Part shown: positions 26,356 to 59,419 of the stretch, piece after piece
Layout of the letters: every line of letters starts with the position of its first letter
Position numbering within the stretch: the first letter of the stretch is position 1
From: Candidatus Heimdallarchaeum aukensis
GTDB lineage: Archaea; Asgardarchaeota; Heimdallarchaeia; Heimdallarchaeales; Heimdallarchaeaceae
Assembly: GCA_021513695.1 (NCBI GenBank)
Contig: CP084166.1
Location: 576,001-640,000 of the forward strand
Direction of reading: 5' to 3'
DNA length: 64,000 bases
Position numbers and translations under genes: made by a program
The notes under the pieces: generated by a model
What the model was told of the DNA's origin: nothing
The model's input: the letters and a program-made list of their open reading frames with translations, nothing else
Database searches by the model: none

Positions 26356-27426
26356 ATGATATGGCTTTCTTTATCTTATTCAATTTTTTCTTTAATAATT
26401 TTAACAATGTTTCTGATTGTTATTATTATAAAACAACTTGAACTTCGATGTACAGCAGTTTATTTTCTAATCATGATCATTGTATCTATTATTGGATGGA
26501 TAGTTGGAGATATGTTACAGATCATTTTTAGCAGCTTGGAAAATAAAGAATTGGTTCTCCTATTTTCACGAATAGCTACTATAAGTAGCATGATTGCAAT
26601 GATTAGCACAGTCTTATTTGCTAGAGTTCTAACTGCTCGTCAAACTTTGAATTCAACAATCGTAATTATTGCTTTCATGTTGTTTAGTGCTGTCGTTGCT
26701 CTCACTTTAAGTTCTAGTTATAAAGTAATTGATCCACCTAAAGATGTAGAATTTTACAAGACCGAAGCAGAACTCTTATGGGTAATTTTTGATGGAGTTT
26801 TGGTAATATTTGCTGGTTCTGTTTTCCTTTACTATCTTATTCGACAAAGAAAAATTGTACAAAAAAGATACTTACCTGTTTTAACTTTAATGAGCGTAGG
26901 AGTCATAATCGCTTTCTTTGTTAGCACTATCCTTTACACAATTTATGCGATATGGTTTATTGTTCCTTTATTACATTTAGAACTGGTAAGCGCTAGTTTA
27001 GGCGCAATAATAATAGGAATAGCAATGATCAAAGGAGGAAAAGAAGCAATTTACTATTCATCAAGAGTTTTCTCATTACATATTTTTGATGAAGTAGGAA
27101 TAAGCTATTATGCTAGTGTTTTTCAAGCAGGATATATAGTTGATGAGCAATTAATCTCAGGAGTAGCATCAGCTATTATAAGTTTTGCAAAAGAACTAAT
27201 CGGAAAAGAGGTTTTTCCACGAGAAATAGATCTTGACGATTACTCATTATTACTAGCTAAAAAAGACAATATAATTATTCTAATAAGCGTGGAATATCCT
27301 ACTGCACATCTAAGACAGACGATGAACAATATTATTGAAAAATTCAGTATGGATATGAGTGAAGAGGAAATAGGAAATCTTGTTGAAAACTATATATGCT
27401 TTGAACCAAGAAAACTAGTCCACTAA
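26356..27426 (+). CDS. 7-TM-like membrane domain fused to a cytoplasmic longin/roadblock-type domain
   Basis: N-terminal 230 aa are polytopic. The C-terminal 120 aa share the pattern seen in 46018..48018 and 57494..59419 (h-h-h-x-x-x-G-I-x-h-x-S-x-x-F ... L-I-S-G-h-x-S-A-I-I-x-F-x-x-E-L). Confidence 0.6.
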   Translation: MIWLSLSYSIFSLIILTMFLIVIIIKQLELRCTAVYFLIMIIVSIIGWIVGDMLQIIFSSLENKELVLLFSRIATISSMIAMISTVLFARVLTARQTLNSTIVIIAFMLFSAVVALTLSSSYKVIDPPKDVEFYKTEAELLWVIFDGVLVIFAGSVFLYYLIRQRKIVQKRYLPVLTLMSVGVIIAFFVSTILYTIYAIWFIVPLLHLELVSASLGAIIIGIAMIKGGKEAIYYSSRVFSLHIFDEVGISYYASVFQAGYIVDEQLISGVASAIISFAKELIGKEVFPREIDLDDYSLLLAKKDNIIILISVEYPTAHLRQTMNNIIEKFSMDMSEEEIGNLVENYICFEPRKLVH

Positions 27427-31834: not shown

Positions 31835-31983
31835 TCTATCTCTTCCACTACTTTTGATGTTAATTTTTGAATATTATTTTTAAACTTTTTTTTGAACGAA
31901 GTTTCCTAGATAAAAAAATTTAAACATGCAAAGAAGAGAATATATTAGAAACAATTGATTAACTACGATATTGGTTGAACTCC

Positions 31984-32547
31984 ATGACAGAAAAACAGTT
32001 TATTTTCAAAATTGTACTTATTGGTGATGGCGCAGTAGGAAAAACTTCTATTAGAATGCAATATATGGGATACGGATTCAATACCAGTCATCTTATGACC
32101 CTGGGAGCAGATTTTTCATCTATTGATAAAGAAATTATTCCTAACGAAAAATGGAAATTTCAAATTTGGGATTTAGCAGGACAACAAATGTTTGAACAAG
32201 TTCGAGCTCGTTTTTACAAAGGAGCTCAGGGTGCCTTACTTGTCTTTGATATCACTCGCCCTTCCTCTTTTCAAAACCTTCCCATGTGGTTAAACGAATT
32301 GTATAAATTCAACGGATCAGGAGTTGTCCCTGTTGTAGTCCTTGCTAATAAGAGTGATTTGAGAGATAGAAAAAGTGTTAAATTCAAACATGTAGAAAAA
32401 TATGTTTCTGAATTAAATCTGCGTACCCAACGCTATGGTGTAACTAATTATTGTTTAGAAACAAGTGCCAAGACTGGATTAAACATCGATAGAGCTTTTG
32501 AAATTCTCGGGAGAAGCATTCGAGATAAATCAAGCAAAAAAACATAA
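31984..32547 (+). CDS. Ras/Rab-like small GTPase with canonical G1-G5 motifs
   Basis: GDGAVGKTS (G1), TLGADF (G2), WDLAGQQ (G3), NKSD (G4), SAK (G5). No C-terminal Cys lipidation motif. The track ORF starts at TTG 31975; I prefer ATG 31984. Confidence 0.9.
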   Translation: MTEKQFIFKIVLIGDGAVGKTSIRMQYMGYGFNTSHLMTLGADFSSIDKEIIPNEKWKFQIWDLAGQQMFEQVRARFYKGAQGALLVFDITRPSSFQNLPMWLNELYKFNGSGVVPVVVLANKSDLRDRKSVKFKHVEKYVSELNLRTQRYGVTNYCLETSAKTGLNIDRAFEILGRSIRDKSSKKT

Positions 32548-32628: not shown

Positions 32629-33195
32629 ATGCTCACATTTAAGATCCTTTTTATAGGCGATAATAGCGTAGGTAAAACTACTTTATTTAAAAAAATTGTT
32701 CAAAATGAAAAAAATAAAGAAAAGATCCCTTCTCTAAAAGCAGAAATAGTAAAAGTTTATCGTACAATCCAAGGAGAAGAAGTAGCTTTTGAACTATATG
32801 ATTTACCTGCGAGAGAACTTTTATCATCTCCTCAAAGAACAAAATGGTATTTAGGGACTGATGGAGCGTTTATAGTTTTTGACATTACAAAAGCAGAAAC
32901 GTTCAGAAGAGTAACATTCTGGCTAGAACAATTAATAAATTATAACAGAAAAGGGAAGATACCTATAGTATTAGTAGGTAATAAAATAGATATGAGAGAC
33001 AATCCTAATGTGAGAAATAGGACACTAAACCCTATAGATGCTCAAGCTTTCTGTCTTCGACTAAATCGTACATCAGCTAGAGAAGGAATTAATAATGAAT
33101 TCTTCGAAGTCTCAGCAATCTCAGGGAAAGGTTTAACTCAATTACTTGATGCATTAGCTAAAAATATTTATAACCATCACAAAAAAATAAAATAG
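32629..33195 (+). CDS. Divergent small GTPase-like protein with degenerate switch I/II
   Basis: GDNSVGKTT (G1), NKID (G4) and SAI (G5) are retained. G3 reads YDLPARE instead of DxxGQ, and no switch-I Thr is evident. Confidence 0.8.
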   Translation: MLTFKILFIGDNSVGKTTLFKKIVQNEKNKEKIPSLKAEIVKVYRTIQGEEVAFELYDLPARELLSSPQRTKWYLGTDGAFIVFDITKAETFRRVTFWLEQLINYNRKGKIPIVLVGNKIDMRDNPNVRNRTLNPIDAQAFCLRLNRTSAREGINNEFFEVSAISGKGLTQLLDALAKNIYNHHKKIK

Positions 33196-46017: not shown

Positions 46018-48018
46018 ATGAAAAGTTTTTTACCTAAATTTCTGCTTAATGAAATCGATCTTTATTTAGATGATTCTCAGAAGTCTATTTTTGAAGAGAA
46101 GGTTAAAAGTATTGTAAGTAATGCTTCTGACTATGATACGATTTCCAAGGACATTACTGCCTTTCTTTTGAATGAAGATTTTACTGATTTAACGACTTAT
46201 GATCAAATGCTTATTCTTGTTTCAATTCTTCTAAATTACTGGAAAAAGGATTATTCTCTTATTTTTAGCATCTATGACAAATTTCATTCTTTTGATTTAC
46301 CTCTTAGCGTTATGATTTGTTTTCTTCTATTTTTTCAAGAATCTTTTGATTTAACCACTTTTAACCTTTGGAGAGAGAAGATAGAAGAGTACATTACAAA
46401 CATTTCTGATTCTACTGAAAAAGAATTTCTTAAAACTGCTATTGAGCAATTTGCTTCTAAGCTTGAGCAAAGGCCTGAGGTTGGTTATCGTTCTATGAAT
46501 CAGCTTATTCGTTCTCTTGAGGAGAATGAGCATATTTCTTATCGATATCCTTTTGTTTTCGAGGCTTTAGAGATTGATCTTATTCAGTACTCTAACATTT
46601 TAGCTGATGAAGTTTTTTCTGAAATCTGGATTGAGTCCGCTAGAAGAAGAGCTGAAGTTATGGAAAACTATGGCATGTTAGTTCAAGTTAACAGCCTTCT
46701 TGCTAGTATTTTAGTTAAAGAGTATCATCTTGAAAAAGCTAAAGAGAAAATTGAGGAGGGGTTAGAGATTGCTAAGAGGATCAATTCTCCTATTTTAGCT
46801 GCTCAAATTGAGTTGAACAAGGCCTTGTTATTGAAGATGCAAGGTAAGTTGGACGAAGCTTTGAAGTTATATGAAAAAATTGCTAAAGTTAAGAATCTTC
46901 CTCAAACTTTTCAATTGGATATTTACAGTAAAATAGGTGAAATTTATCTCAACAAGGACGAGATAGTTAAAGCTGAAGAATACTACCTTAAAGCTCACGA
47001 GATTAATAAGAAACTTAATTTTATCAATCCTCTTGTTGAAATAGTTATAGGTTACATTAACCTGATTTTAGAGAAAGATAAGGGGGAAGCTTTAGATGAG
47101 GGGTTGAAGATTGCTGAAGAACAGTTTGATTTTTCTTCTATTCCTTACTACTACTTCTACAAAGGTATTTATGAGCAACAAAGGGTTAACTTATCCTTAT
47201 CTATTGAATACCTTGAACAAGCTTTGAACTCTTTTGAGCACCAAAAGAACTTTGAGGGTATTGTTTATACTAACGGTGCATTGGCAGAGTCTTATCTTCA
47301 GATTTACAAGCTTCTTCACGATAACAAATATTCTTCTCGGTTCCTCTATTATATTGACAATCTTATTGAAATACTAAAGGAGTTAAACAATCCTTTGTAT
47401 GTTGAAGCAATAAAGACTAAAGCAGGTTACTATTTAGATAAAGGTTTAATTAAAAATGCTGAAGATCTGTTTATTGATGGAATAGAATTTGCTAGGACAC
47501 GAGGATTAAAAGAGGAAGAAATATATCTTAAGGAATCGCTTACTAACAAGAAGAATTTAACAAAAATAACTTTAGAAGGTACTCAAATACTCTTTAGAAA
47601 AATAAGGATGTTCAGCTTTGGTAAGCATAAAACTGTTCCCACCAAATTATACTTACTTTTAGCCATTAATGAAGCTGGAATTCCTTTAGTTTCTCACTCT
47701 TTTACTGAAGAAGAGATGGTAGATGATCTTTTAGTTTCAGGGTTAATTTCAGCTATAATTAATTTCTCTTCTGAAGTTCTAGGAAAAGGAGGAGAAACCT
47801 TACGATCAATAAATCATGAGGGCAAAGCTGTTATAGTAGAGAAAAAGGACAATGTGATGGGTATCTTAGTTGCTGAAGATGAGAATTTCGAGATGAGACT
47901 GGAACTTAGACAGTTTTTGCAGAAAGCGCTTGATAAGTTAGTTTCTGGACTTCCTATTGTCAGAGAAAACGACAGTGAGATTTTTTCTATTATAGAAGAA
48001 GTTTTTGAGAGAAAATAA
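46018..48018 (+). CDS. TPR-rich scaffold protein with C-terminal longin (Bet5/sybindin-like) / roadblock-type domain
   Basis: 666 aa. Helical/TPR repeats through about residue 520. C-terminal KLYLLLAINEAGIPLVSHSF..DDLLVSGLISAIINFSSEVL..INHEGKAVIVEKKDNVMGILV. Confidence 0.75.
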   Translation: MKSFLPKFLLNEIDLYLDDSQKSIFEEKVKSIVSNASDYDTISKDITAFLLNEDFTDLTTYDQMLILVSILLNYWKKDYSLIFSIYDKFHSFDLPLSVMICFLLFFQESFDLTTFNLWREKIEEYITNISDSTEKEFLKTAIEQFASKLEQRPEVGYRSMNQLIRSLEENEHISYRYPFVFEALEIDLIQYSNILADEVFSEIWIESARRRAEVMENYGMLVQVNSLLASILVKEYHLEKAKEKIEEGLEIAKRINSPILAAQIELNKALLLKMQGKLDEALKLYEKIAKVKNLPQTFQLDIYSKIGEIYLNKDEIVKAEEYYLKAHEINKKLNFINPLVEIVIGYINLILEKDKGEALDEGLKIAEEQFDFSSIPYYYFYKGIYEQQRVNLSLSIEYLEQALNSFEHQKNFEGIVYTNGALAESYLQIYKLLHDNKYSSRFLYYIDNLIEILKELNNPLYVEAIKTKAGYYLDKGLIKNAEDLFIDGIEFARTRGLKEEEIYLKESLTNKKNLTKITLEGTQILFRKIRMFSFGKHKTVPTKLYLLLAINEAGIPLVSHSFTEEEMVDDLLVSGLISAIINFSSEVLGKGGETLRSINHEGKAVIVEKKDNVMGILVAEDENFEMRLELRQFLQKALDKLVSGLPIVRENDSEIFSIIEEVFERK

Positions 48019-48101
48019 AACTAAAATTAAAACTAAAATTGAAATTAAAAGCAAAATTGAAATTATAAAATCAAAGAAGGTAAAAATTAGGAAAAAAGAG
48101 A

Positions 48102-50084
48102 TTAGGAAACTAAAGGTCTAACTTGATACTTTAGTCCTATAATTTTCATTATATCTACTGCATCTTCAATGGTGTTTGCTGATACTTCTAGTTCTTCAAT
48201 TATTTGATCTATATAGAGTATTTCTACTGTACTCATCTTTTCTGTCTCTGGAAGAAGTTTTTCTAGAGCTTTATGATTATTTATGTCTAATTCATGTTCT
48301 ATAGCATGTACATCGTTAAATATTGGATGAGAAGCAAGTGGTTGAATGCATACTACTTCTAATACTTCTACTGCTTTGTCGATCAAGTCGCATAGTAAAT
48401 CACACTCTTTTCTCAAGTATTGGGCAAAATAATCTTCTATTTTCTCTCTTGGAATATAGAGTATTTTCCTTAGAGAGCGTAAGATGTAACCTATCGCTTT
48501 ATCGAGTGTTGTTGTAAGTTTGTAAAAGTGGTAGTCATCTGGAGCAGGTCTAACACTGCTGTACATTACTTGAGTAACCTTAAATACAAGATCATCTGCA
48601 CGCCTTTCTTCTTCTTTTGCTTCCCTCATAAGTTTAATGGCTTGTTCTTTATCGCCATCCAAATATTTCTTAAATGACTGAGCTAGTAAATGAATTGTTT
48701 TCTGTACTTTTTCTGCGTGTTTTATTGAATGAGAGGCTTGCACCCATCCTGGTCTTGTTTCTATTGCTAATATTAAGAATGATAAGCCAAGAATGATTAA
48801 TAGTATTCCACTTACTAAGAAAGGAAATTTGAAGACATTACTAACTACACTATTGCCTAGAAACTGTAATGATTCAAAATTTACTACTAGTCCTGCTAAA
48901 CCGAGTACAAGTAAAGGTCCAGTGAAGTAGCCTGAATCTAAAGATGAGCGATAAACACCTATACTTTTTTCTCTTTTTATTATAGGAACAACATCCTTTG
49001 TTATACTTGGAAGAGAAGGATAATACAGAGAAGTACCTAGTCCAGCAAGCAAAGTTAATAATACTACAACTCCAAAAACATCAGTGAATATAATCAGTAT
49101 AATACTAGATCCAGCAAGAATAAATCCAAGTATCATAGGTGTTTTTCTTCCAATTCTATCGCTTAATTTACCCGTGAAAGGCATACTTATTGACCAAGCT
49201 AAAGTGAAAACTGAGGTGGCTATACCAATTTGTACATTAGAAAAACCGTAAACAGTTGATAATAGGAGCGGAAAAATCAAAACTAGAATACTATCTGTTA
49301 TTCTAGAAATGTGTCCTCCCAAATTTGCTAAGATTAGTGTTGGAACTCTAAAAATATTTTTTGTACTCCATCTACTTTCCACTTTTGTTGCATCCAACAG
49401 TACTGAATCTTTTGTTCCTGCAACCAGATCTGTAGTTTCTACATTCTTAATAAATACAAAACCAAAAGCTAGAGCTGTTCCTGCAATTATTAAAGCAAAG
49501 ATGAAAGTTTCAGCAAAACCTAAGTTATTTGCTATCACACCTGCTAAGAATGAACCTAAACTTGAGCCTAAGTACACTGAAAATTCCATTGAACCCACTG
49601 AAAAAGCTGCTCCTTCGTAACCTGCAATATCAGTGAGTGCTGACATAGTCGAAGTAAAGAGTAAACCTAATCCCCCTCCGATGAAAGCGTTACCTAAAGG
49701 TAAAGCCCATAAGTTTCTTGAAAATGCTAAAGCGAATGAACCACAAAGAAGCAATATTAGTCCTATTCTAATAGTCCATTTTCGTTGATATTTGTCACTA
49801 ATAGATGAGCTAAAGAATCCTGCTATACCTTTAAATAGCCCATAAGCTATTACAGCAGAAGATATTTGGAGAAAAACTATGAAACTTTTTTGGAAATTTT
49901 CTTTTGATTCAAAGAGAGGAAAATCGGTAAATGATTCACCAAAGAGAGAAAGAGAGGTTCTTTGAACACCATAAGCTATACCTGCAAAAAGTAGTACAGT
50001 AATTATTGGTCCCCACTTGGAGATAGACTTTAAAAATGAGAAACTTTCCAGCTTTTTTTCTTTCATTTCCATACAATTATTCAA
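48102..50084 (-). CDS. MFS transporter fused to a C-terminal DUF47/PhoU-like helical domain
   Basis: About 12 TM helices in the first 450 aa. The C-terminal 200 aa carry repeated E..(R)ADD/E.ELD/E..AN.IED helices like PhoU-related DUF47. Confidence 0.7.
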   Translation of the reverse strand: MNNCMEMKEKKLESFSFLKSISKWGPIITVLLFAGIAYGVQRTSLSLFGESFTDFPLFESKENFQKSFIVFLQISSAVIAYGLFKGIAGFFSSSISDKYQRKWTIRIGLILLLCGSFALAFSRNLWALPLGNAFIGGGLGLLFTSTMSALTDIAGYEGAAFSVGSMEFSVYLGSSLGSFLAGVIANNLGFAETFIFALIIAGTALAFGFVFIKNVETTDLVAGTKDSVLLDATKVESRWSTKNIFRVPTLILANLGGHISRITDSILVLIFPLLLSTVYGFSNVQIGIATSVFTLAWSISMPFTGKLSDRIGRKTPMILGFILAGSSIILIIFTDVFGVVVLLTLLAGLGTSLYYPSLPSITKDVVPIIKREKSIGVYRSSLDSGYFTGPLLVLGLAGLVVNFESLQFLGNSVVSNVFKFPFLVSGILLIILGLSFLILAIETRPGWVQASHSIKHAEKVQKTIHLLAQSFKKYLDGDKEQAIKLMREAKEEERRADDLVFKVTQVMYSSVRPAPDDYHFYKLTTTLDKAIGYILRSLRKILYIPREKIEDYFAQYLRKECDLLCDLIDKAVEVLEVVCIQPLASHPIFNDVHAIEHELDINNHKALEKLLPETEKMSTVEILYIDQIIEELEVSANTIEDAVDIMKIIGLKYQVRPLVS

Positions 50085-57493: not shown

Positions 57494-59419
57494 TTAATTA
57501 ATATATGTTAGAATGAAAGAATCTTGTATAAGATCTTCTATTTTCTTTTCTTCTATTTTGTCAAAAAACTTACCTGTTTTTGGAATGGAAGTTAGTTTAT
57601 GCCATAATTCCTCGAATTTTCCAATGTTATTAACAAAGTTATCTATCTTTTTATTGGCAGTGAAAGAAGAGCCTTTGAACACATAACAAAAGATTATTCC
57701 TTCCTTGTTTTTGAACGTCAAAAAGTAGTCATGATATTCTACTTGCTTGATTGAACCTTCTGTTGCTAAAACCTCTTTTAATATGTTATTTAAAGCAGAA
57801 AGGAATCCTGAAAATAGAATACTGTCATATTTCTCCTCACTAAAGTTATAACTGTAAAGTGGTATTCCATGTTCATTTAGAATAAGCAACATAACTGGAG
57901 TGTCTTTTTCTATTACTTCGAGTTCGTAGCTAACCCTTTGTATCATCTGCGAAACTAAAGTGTCAACTTGTGTTTTTTCTATTCTTTTCTTTATACTCAC
58001 ATCAGAATTAAGAATTGCTTTCCATTTATTATGTTCTCTTACAATTGAATCATATTCTAAACTTATTTTTTGAGCTAAATTGTCTAATCCTTGAGAAAAA
58101 GCTATCTCCTGCGCTTTTAATAAATCCTCTTGAGCTTCATCAAGATTTAGTTGAATTAGATTAATCTTTCCTTTTAACCAGTAAGCTTCTGCTAAGAGAG
58201 ACCTAGATATTTGCATTTCTGCAATTTTTAATAGCTGAATGTTTATATCCTTTAGTTCATCTATAATTTCGCTTTCATTAAAAATAGTAAGCTCTTCTAG
58301 CAATATTTCAGTAAGGTTTAACATCGCATGAATATTTATCTCATTGTAAATTTCATTCGTTCTAATAATAGAATGAAGAAGAGAGATAGCTTTCGCTTGT
58401 GAAACAAATCTTTTTCGCTCTTTTAATACACTTGCTTCTGTTAGTTTAGCATAAAAACTCAAAAACTTGTTTTTTTCCTTTCTAGATAATTTTTTTAATT
58501 CTTTCAAGTATTCCTGAGCTTTCGATATTTGCCCTAGTAAAATGTGTAACTTAGTCAAATAATAGGTGGATTCAGCTATAATATAGTTAAATTTAACTAA
58601 TTTTGCATAATTTATACTTTTATCGAAAAAATCTAAAGCTAGATTAAACTCTCCTTTACTGAAATAAACGATGCCTATATTATTGAAAACTTGTGAAATT
58701 CCAAAAATATTTTCTTTTTCTTGATAGTTAATTAAAGCATCGTTATATAGTTCAACCGCTTTATTTAGATTTCCTTTTAATCTATAAATCTCACCTATAG
58801 AAATTAAAGTATTGTTAATTATTTGCTTCGAGTTTAAAAATTCACCATAAACAAGACACTCTTCAAAACAAGCAAGGCTTTGATTTAGATTTCCTTTTTG
58901 GGCATTTATTTTTCCTTCTCTATATTTTAAAAAAGCATAAATTTTGGTCTCATTCTTCTCTTTAACTAATTGTAAAGATTTTTTTACTAAATTCAGTGCT
59001 CGTGGTAGATCTTTATAGATAACCAGTAAAGCTTGGCAGAGATTGAAAATGGCATTAACTTCATTTTTATCTTTCTTAATTACCTTTGATTTTGTTTTTT
59101 TGAAGTGTAATAAAATTTCTTCACTTTTTTTGTTTTGTGATAAAAGGAGAGAAAAAACCTCTATCAAATAATAGTAAACATAGAAATCATTAGCCATAAG
59201 TTCTTTCTCATTTTCAAGGTAACTTAAAAGTTGAAGGCCAAATACTTTGCAATCCTCTACTTTACCAAACTCATAAGCTGTTTCAACTTTGTGATTTAAT
59301 AAACTTCTTTTTTCAATTGAAGGTTGTTTTCTCTCTTCTTCATGGTTATTTATTTGGGTAATAATTTCAGAATATTTGGTTGAATCTAGAATTTTTTCGT
59401 TTTCTATGAAATCTATCAC
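57494..59419 (-). CDS. TPR-rich scaffold protein with C-terminal longin (Bet5/sybindin-like) / roadblock-type domain (paralog of 46018..48018)
   Basis: 641 aa. TPR repeats (IGEIYRLKGNLNKAVELY, IGIVYFSKGEFNLALDFF ...). C-terminal VMLLILNEHGIPLYSYNFSEEKYDSILFSGFLSALNNILKEVL..VEYHDYFLTFKNKEGIIFCYVF. Confidence 0.75.
   Translation of the reverse strand: MIDFIENEKILDSTKYSEIITQINNHEEERKQPSIEKRSLLNHKVETAYEFGKVEDCKVFGLQLLSYLENEKELMANDFYVYYYLIEVFSLLLSQNKKSEEILLHFKKTKSKVIKKDKNEVNAIFNLCQALLVIYKDLPRALNLVKKSLQLVKEKNETKIYAFLKYREGKINAQKGNLNQSLACFEECLVYGEFLNSKQIINNTLISIGEIYRLKGNLNKAVELYNDALINYQEKENIFGISQVFNNIGIVYFSKGEFNLALDFFDKSINYAKLVKFNYIIAESTYYLTKLHILLGQISKAQEYLKELKKLSRKEKNKFLSFYAKLTEASVLKERKRFVSQAKAISLLHSIIRTNEIYNEINIHAMLNLTEILLEELTIFNESEIIDELKDINIQLLKIAEMQISRSLLAEAYWLKGKINLIQLNLDEAQEDLLKAQEIAFSQGLDNLAQKISLEYDSIVREHNKWKAILNSDVSIKKRIEKTQVDTLVSQMIQRVSYELEVIEKDTPVMLLILNEHGIPLYSYNFSEEKYDSILFSGFLSALNNILKEVLATEGSIKQVEYHDYFLTFKNKEGIIFCYVFKGSSFTANKKIDNFVNNIGKFEELWHKLTSIPKTGKFFDKIEEKKIEDLIQDSFILTYIN

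Follow-up and report, generated by a model that had tools for sequence, protein, structure and literature searches.

A TPR-longin protein of Candidatus Heimdallarchaeum aukensis and its possible role as a GTPase platform

Introduction

Dimers of longin and roadblock domains are the eukaryotic platforms on which Rab, Arf and Rag GTPases are switched, thereby defining organelles. Asgard archaea carry many longins and roadblocks, and we know of almost none with an established partner or activity. Here, we ask what is encoded at positions 46018..48018 of the window (the whole 64,000-nucleotide stretch of the Candidatus Heimdallarchaeum aukensis genome that was analysed), where an initial annotation had read a TPR scaffold fused to a Bet5/sybindin-like longin domain, and what such a protein could do.

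The expansion of Asgard longins and the shuffling of their domains are already known. Passages of PMC10933270 that draw on Levine 2013 and Cabrera 2014 present longin and roadblock dimers as recurrent GTPase platforms. Liu et al. [quoted passage not shown] Tran et al. (2024) modelled a TRAPPC1-like longin in MK-D1 and noted longin-GTPase fusions, and in Makarova et al. (2024) TPR repeats come up solely as additions to Vps28C/adaptin-appendage/longin proteins. No account of a TPR-longin architecture was found in the literature consulted.

Results

Domain organisation of the protein

The gene (46018..48018, forward strand, stop codon counted) starts with ATG and encodes 666 amino acids. Its product is the database protein P0177 of Ca. 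Heimdallarchaeum aukensis (100% identity over all 666 residues), shares 87.5% identity with P0008 from Ca. H. endolithica, and is labelled in public records as 'tetratricopeptide repeat protein', 'hypothetical protein' or 'MalT-like TPR region domain-containing'. Repeats detectable by Pfam lie at 46699..47016 on the forward strand (aa 228-333), with matches to TPR_2, TPR_1, TPR_12 and TPR_MalT. At aa 301-332, TPR_2 (31.0 bits vs 27) and TPR_1 (28.3 vs 27.8) exceed their gathering thresholds, which identifies a TPR repeat protein by at least one such repeat; TPR_12 (29.5 vs 30.1 bits) and TPR_MalT (23.8 vs 45) stay below theirs. The remainder of aa 1-530 presumably forms a helical solenoid, and a search for an informative solved relative of aa 1-535 returned none. 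Of the 56 full-length proteins in the family, 50 match TPR families in their N-terminal part and 47 have TPR_MalT-type repeats.

The proposed layout of TPR repeats followed by a C-terminal domain is thus borne out, with repeats above Pfam thresholds and a ~130-aa C-terminal domain that models as a longin. As to fold and architecture, we are highly confident that this is a soluble, two-part protein, in which a TPR-type solenoid of ~530 aa precedes a C-terminal longin of the sybindin or Mon1-first-longin type.

The C-terminal longin domain

The longin domain occupies 47614..48015 on the forward strand (aa 533-666). Its AlphaFold2 model (pLDDT 87.8) predicts the five-stranded antiparallel sheet of the longin fold in the order β1-β2-α1-β3-β4-β5-α2-α3, with no helix ahead of β1. 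The strands are β1 (aa 544-550), β2 (556-561), β3 (597-600), β4 (603-610) and β5 (613-619), and the helices are α1 (570-588), α2 (624-642) and α3 (653-663); in model numbering, the assigned elements read E12-18, E24-29, H38-56, E65-68, E71-78, E81-87, H92-110 and H121-131. An earlier run with 8 sequences reached a pLDDT of 65.7 and was left out of the fold searches. The β-β-α-β-β-β-α order that had been read from the letters was recovered in both AlphaFold2 models, with one more helix at the C terminus. The three strings on which that reading was based are placed exactly in the forward-strand translation, namely KLYLLLAINEAGIPLVSHSF at aa 543-562 (nt 47644-47703), DDLLVSGLISAIINFSSEVL at aa 569-588 and LRSINHEGKAVIVEKKDNVMGILVAED at aa 595-621, whereas the spacing between them needed correction: the first gap has six residues (TEEEMV) and not seven, and the gap written as a single residue also has six (GKGGET).

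Conservation within the family is concentrated in the β1-β2 hairpin, in β2 and at the start of α1. By column counts over 158 family domains, the most conserved signature spans 47668..47766 on the forward strand (aa 551-583) and comprises Gly551 in the hairpin, [YF]-S-x-x-F in β2, and D-x-x-L-[IV]-[SG]-G-[FL]-[LI]-x-A-I-x-x-F-x-x-E at the start of α1. In particular, the counts reach 154/155 for G551, 143/157 for F559, 141/158 for L569, 146/158 for G572 and 150/158 for A576, followed by F580 (129/158) and E583 (118/158).

When Foldseek was run with the longin model, all recognised matches belonged to the longin/roadblock superfamily, with scores of E 5.5e-5 for MON1A and 1.1e-4 for Bet5; the closest structural neighbours are TRAPP Trs23/Bet5 and Mon1-Ccz1, which are bona fide longins. 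The family profile searched against the PDB pointed the same way, with BET5 at E 0.0044 and 0.022, MON1A at 0.13 and Trs23 at 0.14, all aligned in register from β1 to α2. The description 'Bet5/sybindin-like' agrees with the BET5 match and yet is not exclusive, since the first longins of Mon1/Fuzzy match about equally.

In Pfam, Fuz_longin_1 (PF19036), which together with Intu_longin_1 (PF19031) represents the first longins of tri-longin proteins, matches 13 of 34 family members (best E 6.9e-6), and Sybindin (PF04099) matches 3 of the 34 weakly (best E 0.021), never at threshold. The 666-aa protein itself has no Sybindin match, scores 14.8 bits against the 26.1 required by Fuz_longin_1, and falls under every curated Pfam threshold for the eukaryotic longin families; one family member from Jordarchaeia does pass the Fuz_longin_1 threshold (28.3 vs 26.1 bits). 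A 689-aa Jordarchaeia relative was considered as a tri-longin protein and set aside, its first longin domain alone being detectable. The Heimdallarchaeum protein ends in a single longin, preceded by TPR-type sequence of ~530 aa, and with the family HMM each protein shows one copy only.

Longins of the GAP type are marked by a conserved GP motif ahead of β2 and an arginine finger (PMC12290439). Here, the residue after the invariant G551 is hydrophobic, and proline at +2 is frequent and clearly not invariant among the family sequences inspected. An assignment to the GAP type (FLCN/NPRL2) was considered and set aside.

Paralogs and the wider family

The domain had also been noted in two other open reading frames of the window, and this recurrence lies far above chance by BLASTP and by the family HMM. 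Searched against all six-frame open reading frames of the window, the HMM finds these three only (E 2.8e-38, 2.1e-39 and 3.1e-30). The second paralog (57494..59419, reverse strand, 641 aa) is another TPR-longin protein, with TPR_12 (57.4 bits) and TPR_MalT matches at aa 130-442, a weak Fuz_longin_1 match at aa 510-582, and a longin domain at 57497..57913 on the reverse strand (aa 503-641; family HMM E 2.1e-39); BLASTP aligns it to the 666-aa protein at 30% identity over 89 aa (E 6e-9). Both TPR-longin paralogs hold equivalent relative positions in Ca. H. endolithica. The third paralog (26356..27426, forward strand, 356 aa) places its longin domain (27067..27417, forward strand, aa 238-354; family HMM E 3.1e-30) behind a multi-pass membrane region at aa 1-225, for which a crude hydropathy count gives about 7-9 hydrophobic segments. 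It aligns to the C-terminal 142 aa of the 666-aa protein at 31% over 87 aa (BLASTP E 6e-11), and its orthologs P0016 (62%), P0056 (48%) and P0066 (38%) share the same layout.

The domain belongs to a large, Asgard-centred family of 1714 clusters at 50% identity. A scan with a degenerate DNA motif found at least 118 genome loci and, among the matches listed, all are archaeal and almost all Asgard. Within the family, the domain is linked to TPRs, follows membrane anchors, stands alone, sits inside giant proteins or is fused to small GTPase domains. Searches with the longin domain alone or with a 34-sequence domain profile gave 5 and 8 short proteins, respectively; a full-length profile recovered a longin in 7 of 119 new proteins, the others being mostly generic TPR proteins from cyanobacteria and elsewhere. 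Divergent tandem pairs with a shared architecture and 22-45% identity occur at no fewer than seven loci in different Asgard lineages, and could be plain duplications.

Relation to small GTPases

The two small GTPases that the initial annotation had placed 13 kb upstream are real, with Ras-superfamily genes at 31975..32547 (Pfam Ras E 4e-40) and 32629..33195 (E 6e-26) that end 12.8 kb before 46018. As a functional hint, however, their position carries no weight, because nine unrelated genes intervene (among them an aminotransferase, a P-type ATPase and an ABC transporter), the Ca. H. endolithica ortholog has no GTPase gene within 10 kb, and separate GTPase genes occur near family members at 16 of 121 loci, with no clear enrichment. 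No conserved GTPase neighbourhood was found in the window, in Ca. H. endolithica or at the ortholog loci of the first and third paralogs, and the upstream location was rejected as a hint for want of conserved linkage.

A different line of evidence comes from 13 open reading frames in which a longin recognised by the same family HMM (E 1e-6 to 1e-8) is followed by an Arf, Roc or Ras GTPase domain in one polypeptide of ~300 aa. The fusions support a GTPase-platform role indirectly; against it, these GTPase-fused longins form a subfamily more distant than the TPR-linked domains. We tentatively suggest, at slightly less than even confidence, that the longin of the 666-aa protein is such a platform, and its most likely function would be that of a dimeric scaffold docking or regulating a GTPase.

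Discussion

Our overall explanation, to which we give an even chance of being right, is that of a TPR-longin protein whose longin pair serves as a platform for a Ras-superfamily GTPase. By analogy with every well-studied relative, the longin would pair with a second longin through helix α1 and the edge of the sheet, the partner being either another copy of the same protein or the paralog at 57494..59419. The divergent tandem pairs of several Asgard lineages, and the retained placement of both TPR-longin paralogs in Ca. H. endolithica, speak for such pairing. The resulting pair could dock a Ras-superfamily GTPase, whose nucleotide state would be regulated or which would simply be anchored; because of the identity of the closest relatives, a GEF-like activity appears likelier than a GAP-like one. 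The TPR solenoid would bind other proteins or peptides, so that the protein would couple a GTPase switch to these partners, and the membrane-anchored paralog at 26356..27426 may put an equivalent platform on the membrane.

Alternatively, the longin could be an assembly module with no GTPase client, packing on or regulating its own TPR solenoid or forming an adaptor-like oligomer, after the model of the σ/μ (AP) and ζ/δ (COPI) longins nested in α-solenoid large subunits, or of the regulatory longins of SNAREs. This is rather unlikely, as the sequence signals are those of Bet5, Trs23 and Mon1/Fuzzy and not of adaptor or SNARE longins: Pfam Longin matches one of the 34 members, and the 25 families listed do not include Clat_adaptor_s. 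Moreover, domains of the same family occur fused to GTPases, and no relation between the TPR solenoid and the HEAT/ARM trunks of adaptins is detectable.

The GTPase-platform reading can be extended to an evolutionary proposal that we regard as improbable, in which the TPR-longins would correspond in Asgard archaea to the eukaryotic longin-based Rab/Arf exchange factors (TRAPP core, Mon1-Ccz1) and might be related to their precursors. Here, two divergent paralogs would heterodimerise via their sybindin/Mon1-type longins, and the dimer would be the catalytic platform of a Rab- or Arf-like GTPase in Asgard archaea. The fused solenoid would do the work of separate TPR/α-solenoid subunits in eukaryotes (TRAPPC8/11/12, or adaptor large subunits), with the membrane-anchored paralog providing a membrane version.

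A role in signalling, as a regulator of the MalT/TPR type, is also improbable; in that case the longin-like domain would be a small module for sensing or regulation and not a trafficking-type GTPase platform. The TPR_MalT-type repeats of 47 of the 56 members are consistent with such a role, as are the many fusions of Asgard NPRL2-like longins to two-component domains (Liu et al., 10.1101/2020.10.19.343400) and the occurrence of the family domain behind multi-pass membrane regions, as is often seen in sensors. Lastly, that the C-terminal domain is a roadblock/LC7 (MglB-like) domain is very improbable, as the roadblock order (α1-β1-β2-α2-β3-β4(-β5)-α3, with an N-terminal helix) differs from that of both AlphaFold2 models, which have no N-terminal helix and two C-terminal ones (the modelled residues starting at aa 533), and as its scores are lower.

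The family is abundant and unannotated, its longin is most like those of the GEF type (TRAPP, Mon1), and its members are soluble and TPR-linked, membrane-anchored or fused to GTPases. It offers concrete candidate regulators of archaeal GTPases within a circularly closed Heimdallarchaeial genome. If its members bind and regulate GTPases, they bear on the origin of the eukaryotic trafficking switchboard; if they do not, the longin fold served other uses before eukaryotes.

Comparison with known systems places the protein near, and yet apart from, each of its relatives. Bet5/TRAPPC1 and Trs23/TRAPPC4 of TRAPP are small stand-alone subunits that function only within a multi-subunit complex with Bet3-type subunits, whereas the Heimdallarchaeum longin, at 11-13% sequence identity to Bet5 and Trs23, is fused to a TPR solenoid in a protein of 666 aa. 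Among the genes around it, none was noted as TRAPPC3/V4R-like. The tri-longin Rab GEFs (Mon1-Ccz1, Fuzzy-Inturned, HPS1-HPS4) possess three consecutive longins and no TPR, in contrast to the one longin here. Roadblock/LC7 platforms score lower in structure and sequence, and MglB and Robl_LC7 (PF03259) have an N-terminal helix where the Heimdallarchaeum longin instead has an extra C-terminal one. FLCN, NPRL2 and SMCR8/C9orf72 share with it the longin fold and a conserved glycine directly ahead of β2. Finally, the Asgard longin and roadblock proteins of Liu et al. and Tran et al. come from the same organisms and the same superfamily, and the family HMM recognises longin-GTPase fusions of this kind.

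A tetratricopeptide repeat protein with a predicted C-terminal longin domain

The gene at 46018..48018 (+) begins with an ATG codon and encodes a 666-aa protein, in a window whose G+C content of ~30% is in keeping with the organism. Over its full length the protein is 100% identical to P0177 of Candidatus Heimdallarchaeum aukensis, whose sole annotation is "tetratricopeptide repeat protein", and its Ca. H. endolithica ortholog (87.5% identity) goes under either "hypothetical protein" or "MalT-like TPR region domain-containing protein"; the longin domain is wholly overlooked in public annotation. Tetratricopeptide repeats (TPR) occupy aa 228-333, where the Pfam families TPR_2 and TPR_1 pass threshold, and no curated Pfam family covers the last 130 residues. 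The C-terminal strings quoted in the initial annotation were located exactly, at aa 543-562, 569-588, and 595-621.

A first AlphaFold2 run of this C-terminal domain with 8 sequences reached a pLDDT of only 65.7. When 1.84 billion cluster representatives were searched exhaustively with HMMER, 1714 proteins matched at E <= 1e-3, 186 of them at E <= 1e-10. From these, 34 domains sharing roughly 20-35% identity with the query were aligned; the model built on this alignment had a pLDDT of 87.8 and a pTM of 0.82. Its predicted strands (b) and helices (a) follow the order b1-b2-a1-b3-b4-b5-a2-a3, which is the longin arrangement and not that of roadblock domains, whose topology begins with a helix (PMC10933270). 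All recognised Foldseek matches belonged to the longin/roadblock superfamily, with TRAPP subunits at the top TM-scores. In the fold comparison, Trs23/TRAPPC4 scored 13.3, Bet5/TRAPPC1 and the Drosophila TRAPP core chain 7b6d_C 12.1 each, Mon1 11.8, and Synbindin 11.7, followed by the SNARE longins, AP mu/sigma, sedlin, COPI delta, and Ccz1 (about 11) and by MglB (10.9). Searched against solved structures, the 34-member profile matched BET5 (E 0.0044 and 0.022), MON1A (0.13), and Trs23 (0.14), with the register kept from b1 through a2. Pfam scans of the single members matched Fuz_longin_1 in 13 of the 34 (best E 6.9e-6), Intu_longin_1 in 4, Sybindin in 3, Robl_LC7 in 2, and Longin in 1.

The model thus points to a longin fold, as the initial annotation had proposed in calling the domain a Bet5/sybindin-like longin. 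The sybindin type is indeed among the closest, and the Mon1-first-longin type is about as close. Pfam membership was not reached: every eukaryotic longin-type match of the 666-aa protein lies below the curated threshold (14.8 versus 26.1 bits), and the protein is therefore not a demonstrable member of either family. With its single longin domain, it certainly does not belong to the tri-longin proteins. Separately, in a 689-aa protein of a Jordarchaeia MAG (L052:972-3038(+)), the N-terminal domain exceeds the Fuz_longin_1 gathering threshold (28.3 versus 26.1 bits). The remainder of that protein gave weak matches only, several of coiled-coil type (BORCS6, BLOC1S3, COG4_N), and a tri-longin identity was rejected, as a second or third longin domain was not detected.

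Paralogs and distribution of the longin family

As first read from the sequence, the C-terminal segment recurs in two further ORFs, recovered by both BLASTP and a profile of the longin domain (family HMM). One, at 57494..59419 (-), encodes a 641-aa, likewise TPR-rich protein (30% identity over 89 aa, E 6e-9). The other, at 26356..27426 (+), encodes 356 aa (31% over 87 aa, E 6e-11) and is a membrane-anchored version with ~7-9 hydrophobic segments (aa 1-225) preceding the longin domain (aa 238-354); its orthologs P0016 (62%), P0056 (48%), and P0066 (38%) share this layout. The family HMM found no additional copy among all six-frame ORFs of the window.

Sorted by N-terminus, the best 158 family proteins comprise 97 long soluble, 12 multi-pass membrane, 22 stand-alone or fragmentary, and 27 intermediate forms. 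TPR-longin is the prevailing architecture of this family and no one-off: the N-terminal part matches TPR families in 50 of the 56 long members tested (TPR_MalT in 47). Conservation is strongest at four sites: the hairpin between b1 and b2, with an invariant Gly; b2, with [YF]-S-x-x-F; the first part of a1, with D-x-x-L-[IV]-[SG]-G-[FL]-[LI]-x-A-I-x-x-F-x-x-E; and b3, with I-x-H. Scanning a degenerate DNA form of the a1 motif over one genome per GTDB species yielded at least 118 loci, and the family HMM confirmed 113 of the 118 listed. Among these listed matches all are archaeal and nearly all named records are Asgard lineages (Promethearchaeota/Loki, Heimdall, Hod, Thor, Hel, Hermod, Odin, Sif, Kari, Borr, Jord, and Frey); the non-Asgard labels are 4 Bathyarchaeota/Bathyarchaeia and ~20 "uncultured archaeon". 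The domain also occurs inside 1300-1900-aa proteins among the listed loci. A 1251-aa protein of a Hodarchaeota MAG (L083:2113-5865(+)) carries a prenyltransferase alpha-alpha toroid (Pfam E 2.8e-16) together with a PCI domain and, at the C-terminus, a longin domain of this family. Since the Rab GTPases of eukaryotes rely on prenylation, the combination is odd.

Divergent tandem pairs of the same architecture (22-45% identity) were found at at least seven loci from different lineages, and one Heimdall-related contig carries three successive TPR-longin genes. Same-strand arrays of two to three divergent genes (22-40% identity) were seen at L003:3769-10019 (GCA_016840095.1), L073, L064, and L115. 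Such arrays would fit heterodimeric partners, or simple local expansion.

Genomic neighbourhood

The genes around the TPR-longin gene have unrelated functions: an 856-aa repeat/TPR protein upstream, a small TPR protein on the opposite strand, an ABC transporter, a P-type ATPase, an aminotransferase, and, convergent and downstream, an MFS transporter fused at its C-terminus to a PhoU_div (DUF47) domain (48102..50084 (-), 660 aa), which adjoins the TPR-longin gene in Ca. H. endolithica too. The gap between these convergent genes is occupied by an A+T-only short tandem repeat (48012..48075; AAATTA x9, or an 18-nt unit x3.5) that begins at the TPR-longin stop codon and may be a bidirectional terminator region. 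Ca. H. endolithica has the downstream genes and the second TPR-longin paralog in the same positions, and its upstream side shows rearrangement with IS elements. There, unlike in the window, a DDE_Tnp_1 transposase and a Cas12f1-like TnpB gene lie upstream (L001:4537-8634), which indicates mobile-element insertion and rearrangement between the two genomes. In other MAGs, the neighbours of the membrane-anchored paralog's orthologs are an amidohydrolase and a NIPA Mg transporter rather than GTPases.

The 856-aa protein (43313..45883 (+)), immediately upstream on the same strand, carries at least seven repeats of a ~25-30-aa unit, mainly within aa 1-240 (nt 43313..44032), roughly 'EL-E-x-AI-x-EA-x3-LK-[PK]-V' (e.g. 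KELEIIIRDAKSKLKKV), followed by a C-terminal TPR region; its Ca. H. endolithica counterpart has just 360 aa. The unit resembles the actin-binding motifs of WH2 type, an amphipathic helix plus LKKV, that occur in tandem. As no WH2 match came from Pfam even at E up to 10, a WH2-type identity is only a lead.

Possible association with GTPases and proposed role

The architectures most relevant here are fusions: among the loci listed, the family HMM identified at least 13 ORFs of ~300 aa with an N-terminal longin and an Arf/Roc/Ras-type GTPase C-terminal half (L021:1026-1937(+), L042:2923-3804(+), and 11 further loci: L012, L024, L027, L036, L043, L062, L069, L070, L084, L087, and L120). Almost all these records are labelled Promethearchaeota, L036 only 'uncultured archaeon'. 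Liu et al. and Tran et al. mention longin-GTPase fusions, and the ORFs found here seem to be those. Within the window, the two small GTPases noted 13 kb upstream were verified as a Ras-family pair ending 12.8 kb upstream of the TPR-longin gene, with nine genes between. No GTPase lies within 10 kb of the Ca. H. endolithica ortholog. A separate GTPase ORF was found near a family member at 16 of 121 loci, not clearly above the GTPase gene density of these genomes by a rough estimate; this agrees with the finding that Asgard GTPase genes generally lie outside operons with roadblock or longin genes (Tran et al.).

Large longin and roadblock expansions and lineage-specific domain shuffling are already known in Asgard archaea, and Liu et al. 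(10.1101/2020.10.19.343400) list 130 asCOGs of the Roadblock/LC7 superfamily, sybindin-like explicitly included, so this kind of protein is known. In the texts consulted we found no description of the TPR-longin architecture; the nearest published remark notes TPR repeats alongside some Vps28C/adaptin-appendage/longin proteins (Makarova et al. 2024). As candidates for a part in archaeal GTPase regulation, these proteins are concrete, abundant, and testable.

The 666-aa protein combines a solenoid with a longin domain, and we tentatively favor a GTPase platform, acting by exchange, GTPase activation, or mere docking, a reading with somewhat less than an even chance. The longin domain would dimerize with itself or a paralog, the dimer would present its helical face to a GTPase of the Ras superfamily, other proteins would be recruited through the TPR part, and the membrane-anchored paralog would do likewise at the membrane. 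The main rival, a GTPase-independent assembly role modeled on adaptor or SNARE longins, seems unlikely to us. As to the mode of action, a GP/arginine signature like that of GAP-type longins does not seem to recur in this family: the residue after the invariant Gly is hydrophobic, and Pro at +2 is frequent without being invariant. GEF-type longins are the closest; by predicted fold and by a weak sequence signal, the longin domain has its nearest relatives in the catalytic longin pairs of two exchange factors, TRAPP and Mon1-Ccz1.
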